Shown one piece after another: positions 53,947 to 64,000 of a DNA stretch of 64,000 nucleotides. The translations under genes were made by a program, and so were the position numbers. Under the pieces are notes generated by a model. The model saw only the letters and a program-made list of their open reading frames with translations. It did no database searches and had not been told where the DNA came from. Positions within the stretch are counted from its first letter, which is position 1. Each line of letters begins with the position of its first letter. Location: positions 1,652,729 to 1,716,728 of the forward strand of contig NZ_LN831039.1 of NCBI RefSeq assembly GCF_001457595.1, given 5' to 3'. This DNA is from Mycolicibacterium smegmatis (lineage in GTDB: Bacteria; Actinomycetota; Actinomycetes; Mycobacteriales; Mycobacteriaceae).

Positions 53947-55257
53947 GTGATCGCCGTGGCTTCAATGAGGAATGCAGGTGAACGGGTGCTGACCCGGCTG
54001 CCTGCCGCCAAGGTGCGTGCCATCCACGACCTCTTCATCGAGGGGCAGATCGACCCCGACTCCCTCAGATCGATGTCGCTGCCCCGAGTCGTCGTGGACA
54101 GTTGGCGACGCAGTCTCGAAGTGGGCGTCGACCCCGACAGCGGCGGCCGTACCGCCGCGGCCGAGGCCGCCCTGGCCGAGTTGCGTGCGACGCATCCGCT
54201 CGCCCCCACGCTGCCGCTGATCCGGCGCCTGCTGGTCGAGGACGCTGTCGACTCAGGTGTCGTCGTCGCGATCACGGCGGCCGACGGCACTCTGCTGTGG
54301 GTCGAGGGGGACCGGCAGGCGTGCCGCAAGGCCGAGGCGATGAACTTCGTGCCCGGCTCCGACTGGAGCGAACGCTCCGCGGGCACCAACGCACCCGGCA
54401 CCGCGCTCACGCTGGACCGTGAGGTGCAGATCCGCGGAACCGAGCACTTCTCCCGCATCGTGCACCCGTGGAGTTGCACGGCCGTACCCGTCCACGACCC
54501 GGGGACCGGCGTGCTGCTGGGCGCCATCGACCTCACCGGCGGCTCCCGCGTCGCCTCACCCCAGACCCTCGCGCTGGTGCGCGCGACGGCCGTCGCCGTC
54601 GAGAACCATCTCGCGCTGCTGCGGTTGACCAACCCCGTCACCCCGGTCGCGCCGGAACGCCCCCGGCTGTCGGTGCTCGGCGGCGACCGGCCACGCTGGC
54701 AGACCACAGGTGAGGACGGACGTGCCCGCTCGGCCGTGCTGACCGGCAGGCACGCCGACATCCTGGTGCTGTTGAGCCGTCACCCGGAAGGACTGTCGGC
54801 CGACCATCTGGCGATCCTGCTCGACGACAAGGACCTCGACGTCGTGACGATCCGCGCCGAGATGTCCCGGCTGCGCCGCGTCATCGGGTCCAACTACATC
54901 GCGTCGCGGCCCTACCGGTTGTTGTCGCCGATCTGCAGCGACGTGGCCGACGTGTTCGACGCGTTGCAGTCCGGCGACGTCGCTGCCGCGTTGTCCGCCT
55001 ATACCGGCGCGCTGCTGCCGCAGTCGGTGTCCCCGGCGATCGGGCGCCTGCGCACCGAACTGACCGCGAGCCTGCGCGAGGCGGTGCTGGCCCGCGCGGC
55101 CGTGGGCCGGCTGGACCTGCTGCGCCGCTGGCTGGAACTGCCCGATGGCCGTGACGACCGCGACGGGTGGCGCATGCTGCATGATCACGCCGACGACCCG
55201 GTCACCCGCGCGCAGGCCCTCGGGCACCTGGCGGGCCTGGATTCCGAACTCGCCTGA
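53947..55257 (+). CDS. GAF-domain transcriptional regulator with a C-terminal winged-HTH-like segment
   Basis: Central GAF-like region. C-terminal block [32 protein letters not shown]. The start is uncertain (GTG 53947 or GTG 53956). Confidence 0.65.
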
Positions 55258-55367
55258 GTTCTCGCGCGTCGACAGCGACGCGGCAATCCGTGCAACCGTG
55301 GTGCAACCCCTGTTTGCCTACCTTGAGTGACGACCGACACATTTCGGTGTCCGAACAGGAGAAAGCC

Positions 55368-56891
55368 ATGACTGTTTACGCACGTCCGGGCGCAGACGGC
55401 GCCAAGATGTCGTTCCAGGCCCGCTACGACAACTACATCGGCGGCGAGTGGGTCGCCCCGGTCGAGGGCCGCTACTTCGAGAATCCGACGCCGGTCACCG
55501 GTCAGGTGTTCTGCGAGGTGGCCCGCTCCAGCGAGGCCGACATCGACAAGGCTCTCGACGCCGCACACGCCGCGGCGCCCGCGTGGGGCAAGACCGCCCC
55601 GGCCGAGCGCGCGCTGATCCTCAACCGCATCGCCGATCGCATGGAGGAGAACCTCGAATCCATCGCGCTGGCCGAGTCGTGGGACAACGGCAAGCCGATC
55701 CGCGAGACGCTCAACGCCGACATCCCGCTGGCCATCGACCACTTCCGCTACTTCGCGGGTGTGCTGCGTGCCCAGGAAGGCTCGCTGAGCCAGATCGACG
55801 AGGACACCGTCGCCTACCACTTCCACGAGCCGCTGGGCGTGGTCGGGCAGATCATCCCGTGGAACTTCCCGATCCTCATGGCGGTGTGGAAGCTGGCCCC
55901 GGCCCTGGCTGCGGGCAACGCCGTCGTCCTCAAGCCCGCCGAGCAGACCCCTGTCTCGGTGCTCTACCTGTTCTCACTCATCGGCGACCTGCTGCCCGCC
56001 GGTGTGGTCAACATCGTCAACGGGTTCGGTGTGGAGGCCGGCAAGCCGCTGGCGTCGAGCAACCGCATCGCCAAGATCGCGTTCACCGGTGAGACCACCA
56101 CGGGCCGGCTGATCATGCAGTACGCGTCGCAGAACCTGATCCCGGTGACCCTGGAACTCGGCGGCAAGAGCCCCAACATCTTCTTCAACAACGTGCTCGC
56201 GCAGGCCGACGACTACCAGGACAAGGCGCTGGAGGGCTTCACGATGTTCGCCCTCAACCAGGGTGAGGTGTGCACGTGCCCGTCGCGCTCGCTGATCCAG
56301 TCCGACATCTTCGACGAGTTCCTCGAGCTCGCCGCGATCCGCACCAAGGCCGTGCGCCAGGGCGATCCGCTGGACACCGAGACCATGATCGGTGCGCAGG
56401 CGTCCAACGATCAGCTGGAGAAGATCCTGTCCTACATCGAGATCGGCAAATCCGAAGGGGCCAAGCTGATCACGGGTGGGGAGCGTGCGCAGCTCGGCGG
56501 CGATCTCAACGGCGGCTACTACGTGGCGCCGACGATCTTCACGGGCAACAACAAGATGCGCATCTTCCAGGAGGAGATCTTCGGCCCGGTCGTGGCGGTC
56601 ACGTCGTTCAGCGACTACGACGACGCCATCTCGATCGCCAACGACACGCTCTACGGTCTGGGTGCCGGTGTGTGGAGCCGCGACGGCAACATCGCCTACC
56701 GCGCGGGCCGCGACATCAAGGCCGGCCGGGTGTGGACCAACTGCTACCACCAGTACCCCGCGCACGCCGCGTTCGGTGGCTACAAGCAGTCCGGCATCGG
56801 GCGTGAGACCCACAAGATGATGCTCGACCACTACCAGCAGACCAAGAACCTGCTGGTTTCGTACAGCAACAAGGCCCAGGGATTCTTCTGA
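55368..56891 (+). CDS. NAD-dependent aldehyde dehydrogenase
   Basis: ATG 55368 with CAGGAGA RBS. Catalytic Glu (LELGGKSP) and Cys ([10 protein letters not shown]). 507 aa. Confidence 0.9.
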
Positions 56892-57045
56892 CGAGCGCTC
56901 GCGCGAGGAGCATCGAATTCTGATCCGTAAGGCCTGAACAGACCCCGTCGAGTGTGAAGCTGTTGCGACGATTGACCCGCATACTCGCAACAGCTTCACA
57001 CTCGCGGCATTTCTCGTTCCGACAACACAATTCGTAGGAGGCTTG

Positions 57046-57444
57046 ATGGGTGCCCTGTCGCTGTCCACGGCGCAGAAGGTGGTTGACGCCGCGATCGAGA
57101 AAGCGAACGAGATCGGTCAGCCGATGAACATCGCCGTCGTCGACGACGGCGGCCACCTGGTCGCGTTCGCCCGCATGGACGGCGCCATCAAGGCCAGCAT
57201 CGACATCTCGATCCGCAAGGCGCGCACGTCGATCCTGATGAACCTGCCGACGAGTGCGCTCATGGACGTCGCGCAGCCCGGTGGCGAACTGTACGGGCTC
57301 GAACAACTGTCGGGCGGCCTGGTGCTGTTCGGTGGAGGCCTGCTGCTGGAACGTGACGGCGCGGTCATCGGCGCCATCGGCGTCAGCGCCGGAAGCGTCG
57401 AGCAGGACGTGAAGGTCGCCGAGGCCGGCGTCGCCGCACTCTGA
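57046..57444 (+). CDS. GlcG/PduO-C-like DUF336 (haem-binding) protein
   Basis: AGGAGG RBS. Typical DUF336 sequence ALSLSTAQKVVDAAIEKANEIGQPMNIAVVDDGGHLVAF. Confidence 0.8.
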   Translation: MGALSLSTAQKVVDAAIEKANEIGQPMNIAVVDDGGHLVAFARMDGAIKASIDISIRKARTSILMNLPTSALMDVAQPGGELYGLEQLSGGLVLFGGGLLLERDGAVIGAIGVSAGSVEQDVKVAEAGVAAL

Positions 57445-57459
57445 CGCTTCAGGAATCGC

Positions 57460-63297: not shown

Positions 63298-63358
63298 TCT
63301 CATCCGGTTTGCGCGTTGGGGTGGACAGCCACGCCATCGGGGGAGATACTCATTGATC

Positions 63359-63380
63359 AAAGGTTGAGTTTCCAACCTTT
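63359..63380 (+). other. 8-bp stem / 6-nt loop hairpin downstream of the reactivase genes
   Basis: AAAGGTTG-AGTTTC-CAACCTTT. Confidence 0.4.
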
Positions 63381-63451
63381 AGGTCCGTGCAGGGTGGCGC
63401 GGCCGACGCTCGAAGCCCGAGAACCGGGGGCCGAAAGGTGGTTACACCGGT

Positions 63452-63476
63452 CAGTTGCACCGACGGTGAGCAACTG
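63452..63476 (+). other. 7-bp stem / 11-nt loop hairpin in the permease leader
   Basis: CAGTTGC-ACCGACGGTGA-GCAACTG, 55 nt upstream of ATG 63531. Confidence 0.35.
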
Positions 63477-63530
63477 GCGCTCGTCGAATCCGACGCGAAT
63501 CCAATGGCATTGCAAACAAGGGAGTTTGAC

Positions 63531-64000
63531 ATGGCGGGTGTGGAAGAACACCTGGAAAGTGCAGATTACCTGCAGAAGCGCCAGCTCAAATCGGGCAGCG
63601 CGGGATGGGTGCTGCTCGCCGGACTGGGCGTCAGTTACGTCATCTCGGGTGACTACTCCGGGTGGAACTTCGGCCTCGAACAAGGCGGCTTCGGCGGCCT
63701 GGCGATCGCGGCCATCATCATCGCCGGCATGTACCTGGCCCTCGTGCTGGGCATGGCCGAACTGTCCTCGGCGCTTCCCGCGGCAGGTGGCGGCTACACG
63801 TTCGCCCGCCGGGCCCTCGGCCCGTGGGGCGGTTTCGCGACCGGCACCGCGATCCTCATCGAGTACTCCATCGCACCCGCGGCCATCGCCACCTTCATCG
63901 GCGCATACGTCGAGTCCCTCGGCCTGTTCGGCATCACTGCCGGGTGGTGGATCTACCTCGTGGCGTTCGCGATCTTCATCGGCATCCACCTCGCGGGTGT
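63531..64000 (+). CDS. APC-superfamily permease (ethanolamine/amino-acid permease-like), truncated at the window end
   Basis: ATG with AAGGGAG RBS. Sequence MAGVEEHLESADYLQKRQLKSGSAGWVLLAGLGVSYVISGDYSGWNFGLEQGGFGGLAIAAIIIAG. No stop before the window end. Confidence 0.72.
   Translation, partial: MAGVEEHLESADYLQKRQLKSGSAGWVLLAGLGVSYVISGDYSGWNFGLEQGGFGGLAIAAIIIAGMYLALVLGMAELSSALPAAGGGYTFARRALGPWGGFATGTAILIEYSIAPAAIATFIGAYVESLGLFGITAGWWIYLVAFAIFIGIHLAG

Follow-up and report, generated by a model that had tools for sequence, protein, structure and literature searches.

Gene content of the locus

The stretch of the Mycolicibacterium smegmatis chromosome analysed here (64,000 nucleotides, hereafter the window) ends in a locus for a B12-dependent diol/glycerol dehydratase and its reactivase, followed by the beginning of an ethanolamine utilization module. 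By sequence, the locus is MSMEG_1542–1554, with the eutBC part lying beyond the window end, and its genes are already annotated. Across this region, the DNA shared 99.25% identity with M. smegmatis mc2 155 (CP009495), and two other assemblies matched it at 100%; the FhuF-like protein encoded there had 99% identity with an M. smegmatis protein at NCBI. The order and spacing of MSMEG_1540–1556 tabulated by Martini et al. 2019 (PMC6448022) agreed with the window. Gene boundaries were taken from contig L001, which had 100% identity with the window across 12,939 bp, whilst the mc2 155 locus (contig L091) was used to transfer published transcription start sites (TSSs) onto the window.

Genes were identified with Pfam and NCBIfam searches (Table 1). 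Ten genes had been named in an earlier note on this DNA; all of them were present at or near the positions it gave, and its coordinates for the three dehydratase subunits were exact. Parts of the locus appear in the literature under differing names. MSMEG_1547 ("glycerol dehydratase") and eutBC are listed among the predicted B12-dependent enzymes of M. smegmatis (PMC8088520), and "propanediol dehydratase MSMEG_1546" and "aldehyde dehydrogenase MSMEG_1543" are named in PMC11303327. The MSMEG_1546 protein has been detected in M. smegmatis, and the MSMEG_1547 transcript was present at 222–262 expression units across three media.

Table 1. Genes, promoters and other elements of the dehydratase and ethanolamine locus (window coordinates)
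Feature	Position	Strand	Evidence and remarks
MimR/AcoR-like regulator, MSMEG_1542 ortholog	53965..55257	+	PF26965 MimR_N; GAF PF01590 37 bits
Aldehyde dehydrogenase promoter	TGCAAC-N5-TGCAAC 55291-55307; -10 TACCTT 55319-55324; TSS 55332	+	Mapped TSS
NAD-dependent non-acylating acetaldehyde dehydrogenase, ExaC type, MSMEG_1543 ortholog	55368..56891	+	PF00171 514 bits
Hairpin/small RNA Ms_IGR-8 (RF02470)	56956-57018	-	83.9 bits (gathering score 44)
DUF336 GlcG/HbpS-like protein (glcG), MSMEG_1544 ortholog	57046..57444	+	PF03928 137 bits
FhuF-fold [2Fe-2S] protein, MSMEG_1545 ortholog	57460..58158	-	FhuF_C 39 bits
Dehydratase operon promoter	CGCAAC-N5-TGCAAC 58217-58233; -10-like CACAAT 58245-58250; TSS 58259, second TSS 58243	+	
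Dehydratase small (gamma) subunit	58313..58741	+	PF02287 194 bits; NF011975 236 bits; short form
Dehydratase large (alpha) subunit, MSMEG_1547 ortholog	58751..60463	+	PF02286 1005 bits
Dehydratase medium (beta) subunit	60466..61062	+	PF02288 122 bits; NF011616 303 bits; short form
Reactivase large subunit (ddrA), DdrA/PduG/GdrA type	61062..62933	+	TIGR04491 886 bits (cut-off 400)
Reactivase small subunit (ddrB), DdrB/PduH/GdrB type	62923 (alternative start 62956)..63297	+	Dehydratase_MU fold 95 bits
eat-eutBC promoter TGGACA-17-GATACT	63322-63350	+	Promoter scan, sigma-70-like
Palindrome AAAGGT-N10-ACCTTT, candidate operator	63359-63380		Directly 3' of eat promoter
Ethanolamine permease eat, MSMEG_1552 ortholog, 5' part (157 codons)	63531..64000	+	TIGR00908 525 bits (cut-off 382), full-length protein from L001
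eat end, outside window	window-equivalent 64943	+	L001 gene calls
eutB, outside window	window-equivalent 64940-66355	+	PF06751 on L001
eutC, outside window	window-equivalent 66352-67128	+	PF05985 on L001

Dehydratase and reactivase

The five genes of the dehydratase and its reactivase were tightly packed in the order gamma-alpha-beta-ddrA-ddrB, with gaps of 9 and 2 nt followed by overlaps of 1 and 11 nt. The two starts given for the small reactivase subunit reflect two differing gene calls. The dehydratase subunits passed the NCBIfam subfamily cut-offs, and the large reactivase subunit contained the Pfam domains DDR (496 bits) and DDR_swiveling (230 bits). The alpha subunit aligned without gaps to both the Klebsiella pneumoniae glycerol dehydratase (1iwp_A, 835 bits) and the Klebsiella oxytoca diol dehydratase (1dio_A, 788 bits). 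It kept Gln141, His143, Glu170, Glu221, Gln296, Ser301, Asp335, Gln336, Ser362 and Phe374 of the diol dehydratase, each at the diol dehydratase position plus 12. These are the residues that we take, from the K. oxytoca literature, to be involved in catalysis and in metal and substrate binding. The earlier note had made its assignment depend on an intact alpha active site; every checked residue was identical in the gapless alignment.

The medium and small subunits were of the short form. Residue 19 of beta paired with residue 53 of the K. oxytoca diol dehydratase beta subunit, and residue 10 of gamma with residue 41 of its gamma subunit, amounting to approximately 34 and 31 fewer N-terminal residues, respectively; beta thus begins at about residue 35 and gamma at about residue 32 of the corresponding diol dehydratase subunits. 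Both subunits aligned end to end with those of glycerol dehydratase, with gamma residues 9–138 pairing with residues 8–137. Sequence comparison identifies the enzyme as an adenosylcobalamin (AdoCbl)-dependent diol/glycerol dehydratase (EC 4.2.1.28/30) with a predicted ATP-dependent two-subunit reactivase.

The large reactivase subunit of mc2 155 (L091 8312-10183) differed from that of the window (61062-62933) at two positions, V472I and P617M. A frameshift in the reactivase gene of the laboratory strain was considered and rejected, since MSMEG_1549 is intact (623 aa) in CP009495; the length tabulated for it by Martini et al. 2019 (PMC6448022), 1871 nt, is not divisible by three.

Absence of shell genes

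No genes of the bacterial microcompartment (BMC; PF00936), EutN/PduN (PF03319), PduL or adenosyltransferase families were found in the precomputed Pfam annotation of called genes in the 64-kb window and 8.9 kb downstream of it. A PduA probe, verified by its BMC domain (103 bits) and by 81–86% identity to shell genes in Firmicute loci, gave a best match of only E = 0.097 in the window. With the same probe, the 10-kb surroundings of the 70 actinobacterial loci described below were likewise negative for shell genes, and an adenosyltransferase probe from a sister species had no match in the window. The reported lack of BMC shell, PduL/PduP and adenosyltransferase genes between 54 and 64 kb was upheld by the Pfam hits and by both probes, and the suggestion that cobalamin recycling genes lie elsewhere fits with the absence of an adenosyltransferase gene from the window. 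Shell genes directly downstream, which would have spoken against a pathway without microcompartments, were absent; the order there was the rest of eat, eutB, eutC, a minus-strand hypothetical gene, rplM, rpsI and glmM.

The N-terminal extensions of PduD and PduE carry the signal that targets these subunits to microcompartments. Because beta and gamma lack such targeting extensions, a free cytosolic enzyme is supported, in line with the cytosolic, microcompartment-free pathway proposed in the earlier note. B12 dehydratases without a shell, of the dha type, have long been known.

The locus was compared with two characterized systems. With the dha type of Klebsiella, Citrobacter and Clostridium (DhaB123-GdrAB/OrfY), it shared a three-subunit AdoCbl enzyme (approximately 70% alpha identity), short beta and gamma subunits, a two-subunit reactivase, an adjacent DUF336 protein (OrfY, PDB 2a2l) and the lack of a microcompartment. 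The dha type differs in having the order alpha-beta-gamma and in reducing its aldehyde, whereas the aldehyde would be oxidized by the ExaC-type dehydrogenase in M. smegmatis; no Fe-ADH or Dak gene, as expected for the 1,3-propanediol oxidoreductase DhaT or for DhaD/DhaK, was present in the gene list of the locus. The aerobic host, another regulator and the FhuF-like gene further distinguish the window locus from the dha type. The pdu metabolosome of Salmonella and K. oxytoca (PduCDE-PduGH) has the same enzyme family, active-site residues and reactivase, and its DUF336 domain is the C-terminal domain of PduO. In contrast to it, the window locus has another gene order and no shell genes, targeting extensions or PduL/P/Q/W/S/O.

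Gene order in related loci

The comparison set contained one genome per species and 80 dehydratase loci, 70 from actinobacteria and 10 from Firmicutes or proteobacteria. The genera sampled included Mycolicibacterium, Pseudonocardia, Actinomycetospora, Kineosporia, Modestobacter, Amycolatopsis, Streptosporangium and its relatives, and Conexibacter, and the alpha subunits of the actinobacterial loci were 76–94% identical to that of the window. All 70 actinobacterial loci had the order gamma-alpha-beta, which makes this order a lineage-wide trait. The reactivase genes were located 3' of gamma-alpha-beta in these loci, and 5' in one Conexibacter contig. The ten Firmicute and proteobacterial loci were all ordered alpha-beta-gamma; six of them contained PduA-like genes and four had none. 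A missing shell does not depend on the gamma-alpha-beta order. The order had been singled out in the earlier note as unlike that of enterobacterial pdu and dha operons; this is real, although it is no peculiarity of the M. smegmatis locus.

Sister clusters in other actinobacteria carried additional genes: a PduO-type adenosyltransferase (6 loci), a PNP_UDP_1 nucleosidase (4), a tetrapyrrole methylase (11), a LuxR regulator (7), a MIP facilitator (28) and the glycerol kinase gene glpK (13). Examples of such extra genes were located at L020:4540-5109, L020:2403-3131, L022:6743-7891, L022:7891-8640, L063:8679-9533 and L020:882-2399. In sister Mycolicibacterium species, they were placed between glcG and the FhuF-like gene. 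The nucleosidase could dispose of 5'-deoxyadenosine. None of these MIP, glpK, PduO-type adenosyltransferase, tetrapyrrole methylase, LuxR and PNP_UDP_1 genes was found in the window, and the M. smegmatis cluster is therefore a reduced version.

The chromosomal position beside rplM was common to many fast-growing Mycolicibacterium species. A recently acquired island was ruled out by the uniform G+C content and this conserved site.

Direct-repeat promoters and the putative regulator

The TSSs of the aldehyde dehydrogenase gene and the dehydratase operon were mapped experimentally by Martini et al. 2019 (PMC6448022) and placed on the window via the mc2 155 sequence. Both promoters contained a direct repeat of TGCAAC or a close variant, at −41 to −25 for the aldehyde dehydrogenase gene and at −42 to −26 for gamma. 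The repeats overlapped the −35 region, and the spacing to the −10 element was 11 nt in both promoters. The pattern GCAAC-N6-GCAAC occurred twice in the 64-kb window (0.12 expected) and at 91 sites in 1.37 Mb of sequence from 71 actinobacterial loci (about 2.6 expected). In the actinobacterial loci, it preceded each of the 20 genes for ExaC-like aldehyde dehydrogenases and lay within 220 bp upstream of gamma in 41/71, with its location at these promoters conserved across many genera. Upstream of eat, the regulator gene and the FhuF-like gene of the window, the TGCAAC motif was absent even when two mismatches were allowed. No description of the motif or of MimR binding sites was found in the searchable literature.

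The regulator encoded at the beginning of the locus has a TSS at window position 53905, as transferred from the data of Martini et al. 2019. Its sensor part matched DhaR(N) (PDB 4lrx) by sequence and by fold (Foldseek), and a Foldseek search with the whole AlphaFold model returned this sensor-domain match only. The protein had been described beforehand as a GAF/HTH regulator. The GAF domain was confirmed and was accompanied by a MimR_N domain, whilst the helix-turn-helix part had no curated Pfam match. A match to Trans_reg_C was weak (E = 0.067, residues 258–310), and residues 234–319, modelled with moderate confidence, had a beta3-H-H-H-hairpin topology. This region is probably a winged helix of the OmpR/SARP-like kind, followed by a C-terminal domain of helices; such a winged helix would match the 11-bp period of the direct repeats. 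No characterized member of the large GAF-regulator family of MSMEG_1542 was found in the searchable literature.

The motif was present in 30 of 31 loci with a MimR-like gene and in 18 of 40 loci without one, counts that do not take phylogeny into account. Loci lacking the motif carried a GAF-kinase-LuxR or GntR gene instead. Based on this co-occurrence, we hypothesize that the MimR/AcoR-like GAF protein binds the TGCAAC repeats and activates both promoters.

A stem-loop, GACAC-N6-GTGTC, was observed in the 5' leader of the aldehyde dehydrogenase gene just after the TSS (55336–55351), and other Mycolicibacterium species had similar sequences in the leaders of their aldehyde dehydrogenase genes.

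The ethanolamine module

The permease gene at the window end had been noted as an ethanolamine-permease-like APC permease of the dehydratase island. Its identity was confirmed by TIGR00908, but it belongs to an eat-eutBC unit apart from the dehydratase operon. Since eat-eutBC has its own promoter and a probable palindromic operator, it was regarded as a separate transcription unit. The palindrome AAAGGT-N10-ACCTTT was unique in the window (0 expected), and both promoter and palindrome were conserved in eight Mycolicibacterium species at this position only. The rest of the eat leader was not conserved. From its sequence, the palindrome looks like a repressor operator of eat-eutBC and not like a riboswitch. 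In a subset of Mycolicibacterium species, namely seven of the sampled species loci besides M. smegmatis, eat-eutBC was also found directly downstream of the dehydratase operon. Nothing usable on nitrogen or GlnR control of the M. smegmatis eut genes was found in the searchable literature.

Eat would import ethanolamine, which EutBC would split into acetaldehyde and ammonia. The acetaldehyde could then go to the same ExaC-type dehydrogenase that serves the dehydratase. Short eut loci of other actinobacteria and of proteobacteria likewise consist of the permease, EutB and EutC only, with neither eutA nor a shell. The M. smegmatis module is unlike them in its location directly downstream of a diol dehydratase operon and in its conserved promoter and palindrome.

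Intergenic RNA elements

A check for a cobalamin riboswitch had been proposed for both intergenic regions. Neither 58159–58312 nor 63298–63530, nor any other part of the window, contained an Rfam match to the cobalamin riboswitch (RF00174) or its relatives, at the gathering score or at E ≤ 5, and none was found at the Rfam gathering score in six related loci. The eat leader (63357–63533, including the palindrome) folded no better than shuffled sequence (z = −1.07).

The intergenic region between the aldehyde dehydrogenase gene and glcG contained Ms_IGR-8, in the form of a 19-bp perfect hairpin with its arms at 56950–56968 and 56985–57003. The score on the plus strand was 36.9 bits, lower than that on the minus strand (Table 1). 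Ms_IGR-8 was absent from the six related species searched. The published glcG TSS (Martini et al. 2019, PMC6448022) corresponds to window position 56764, still in the 3'-terminal part of the aldehyde dehydrogenase gene, so that the glcG leader includes the hairpin. Read on the minus strand, the hairpin could terminate a FhuF-like transcript running antisense through glcG.

DUF336 and FhuF-like proteins

The DUF336 protein matched EfgA (PDB 6bws, 7.9e-30), the C-terminal domain of PduO (5cx7, 5.3e-26) and K. pneumoniae OrfY (2a2l, 4.4e-21). A tblastn search detected its gene in the majority of the 80 dehydratase loci, which makes it a nearly constant companion of B12 dehydratases. Binding of heme and cobalamin is reported for the PduO C-terminal domain, and aldehyde sensing for EfgA, a formaldehyde sensor; the role of DUF336 proteins in dehydratase clusters is unknown according to PMC8153426.

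The FhuF-like gene is convergent with glcG and divergent from gamma. The scores of the protein were below the equivalog cut-offs (TIGR03951: 41 vs 63.85 bits; NF007932: 20.8 vs 300). Its AlphaFold model (pLDDT 92.6) matched E. coli FhuF (7qp5) over the full length, with a TM score of 0.72 and 16% identity. With this ferric-siderophore reductase, it shares the fold and the CC-x10-C-x2-C cluster motif, which was present in all dehydratase-adjacent FhuF-like homologs examined. The genomic partner is different, namely a B12 enzyme operon and not siderophore genes as for FhuF. By our count, the FhuF-like gene adjoined the dehydratase in 20 of 24 sampled Mycolicibacterium and Mycobacterium loci. In Pseudonocardia it followed ddrB in the same orientation, and in Streptosporangium it preceded the dehydratase genes. 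The recurrence beside the dehydratase in three arrangements argues for a functional link between the two. Candidate roles of the DUF336 and FhuF-like proteins are the handling or reduction of the cofactor and the sensing of aldehyde.

Aldehyde oxidation and the likely substrate

The aldehyde dehydrogenase scored 965 bits against the NCBIfam ExaC equivalog NF050026 (cut-off 900). An enzyme of this type would oxidize the aldehyde released by the dehydratase to the corresponding acid. The substrate of the dehydratase is most likely ethylene glycol or 1,2-propanediol, possibly glycerol. Ethylene glycol would be converted in the cytosol via acetaldehyde to acetate, and 1,2-propanediol via propionaldehyde to propionate; activation of the acids would fall to CoA ligases whose genes lie outside the locus.

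The route resembles that of Mycobacterium E44, in which ethylene glycol is converted to acetaldehyde by a B12-dependent diol dehydratase and further to acetate (Wiegant and de Bont 1980, as cited in PMC12214560). The dehydratase and aldehyde oxidation reactions described there match the gene content of the window locus. The work on Mycobacterium E44 was purely biochemical, and no gene assignments for the E44 pathway were found.

Probable organization as two AdoCbl-dependent modules

The locus is real, intact and ordinary for actinobacteria, including its gene order and the absence of a shell. With a probability of roughly three in four, MSMEG_1542–1554 comprises two adjacent AdoCbl-dependent modules that both release a short aldehyde to the cytosol. 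The first would be the packed gamma-alpha-beta-ddrA-ddrB operon for a short-subunit diol dehydratase and its reactivase, complemented by the unlinked ExaC-type aldehyde dehydrogenase gene, which would be read from a promoter of the same design. The second would be eat-eutBC, with its own sigma-A-type promoter and palindromic operator. Several points count against this reading. The link of the locus to growth on diols is drawn from its genes, and the alpha subunit had a slightly better score with glycerol dehydratase than with diol dehydratase (835 vs 788 bits). In sister species, the TGCAAC repeat preceded not only a LuxR-methyltransferase operon but also glpK, and a MIP (GlpF-like) gene was part of the cluster. 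The DNA-binding domain of the regulator is proposed from the weak Trans_reg_C match and the topology of the model, and the co-occurrence of regulator and motif was counted irrespective of phylogeny. Under the published conditions, TSSs were mapped neither for eat nor for the FhuF-like gene (Martini et al. 2019, PMC6448022).

Some of these points would fit a physiological glycerol dehydratase, with glycerol converted to 3-hydroxypropionaldehyde and, by the aldehyde dehydrogenase, to 3-hydroxypropionate. All three subunits resemble the K. pneumoniae glycerol dehydratase at least as closely as the diol dehydratase, with beta and gamma having the short glycerol-dehydratase architecture, and MSMEG_1547 is annotated publicly as glycerol dehydratase (PMC8088520). 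Yet glpK, MIP and 1,3-propanediol oxidoreductase genes were absent from the window, and the aldehyde dehydrogenase was above the threshold of the ExaC acetaldehyde dehydrogenase equivalog. MSMEG_1547 was not induced by glycerol (262 units vs 222–247 in steroid media), whereas the glycerol kinase gene glpK (MSMEG_6759) was about 20-fold upregulated in glycerol in the same data. The neighbouring eut module would likewise yield acetaldehyde. Diol and glycerol dehydratases overlap in their substrate range, and the sequence similarity is not decisive. We consider a physiological glycerol dehydratase unlikely. Far less probable still is packaging of the dehydratase in trans into a microcompartment whose genes lie elsewhere in the genome, for which an RMM-type BMC locus, presumably present in M. 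smegmatis, would be the candidate. No computed result favoured packaging. It is opposed by the absence of PduD/PduE-type extensions from beta and gamma, by the 70/70 actinobacterial loci devoid of shell genes within 10 kb, and by an aldehyde consumer of the non-acylating ExaC type rather than the acylating PduP/EutE type.

The FhuF-like and DUF336 genes might also be unrelated neighbours, encoding a siderophore-iron reductase and a generic GlcG. This is the less probable explanation, although it deserves more weight than either of the two preceding ones. The fold and cysteine motif of the FhuF-like protein are those of a ferric-siderophore reductase, and its gene is located on the opposite strand with neither a TGCAAC motif of its own nor a mapped TSS. 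Among Mycolicibacterium loci, the protein was only 40–67% identical, compared with 76–94% for the dehydratase subunits, indicating faster evolution. A chance neighbourhood is at odds with the position of the gene beside the dehydratase in 20 of 24 mycobacterial loci and also in Pseudonocardia and Streptosporangium. DUF336 proteins, in turn, accompany B12 dehydratases in Actinobacteria, Firmicutes and Klebsiella (OrfY, PduO C-terminal domain). A specific division of labour in shell-less actinobacterial diol dehydratase systems, in which the FhuF-like protein would act as a dedicated corrinoid reductase, re-reducing the cob(III)alamin or cob(II)alamin that the reactivase releases, and the DUF336 protein as a cofactor chaperone or aldehyde sensor, replacing PduS, PduO and shell functions, is a speculative proposal that we consider doubtful, somewhat more so than the glycerol dehydratase.

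The two-module reading assigns a likely gene set to the Mycobacterium ethylene glycol pathway of 1980 in a tractable model organism. It bears on how a cytosolic aldehyde is tolerated aerobically without a microcompartment and on the catabolism of ethylene glycol, a monomer of polyethylene terephthalate. The gamma-alpha-beta order, the shell-less organization and the DUF336 partner represent the actinobacterial norm. What is added to the existing annotation is confined to the conserved motif at the promoters and the FhuF-like partner that recurs beside the dehydratase. The former, a TGCAAC repeat at two mapped promoters together with a GAF regulator, offers a testable regulatory model; the latter is a candidate for a role in the maintenance of the B12 enzyme.

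Neighbouring genes

The dehydratase/eut block is flanked by ESX-4 and rplM-rpsI. The ESX-4 type VII secretion locus (eccB, mycP, eccD, eccC and an esx pair) is located in the preceding part of the window (1–53700). This part also contains secY-adk-map, rmlB/rmlC, three cutinase genes, a DEAD-box helicase gene and the cluster infA-rpmJ-rpsM-rpsK-rpsD-rpoA-rplQ-truA. A second aldehyde dehydrogenase gene was found together with an acyl-CoA dehydrogenase gene at about 13.7–16.4 kb of the window.

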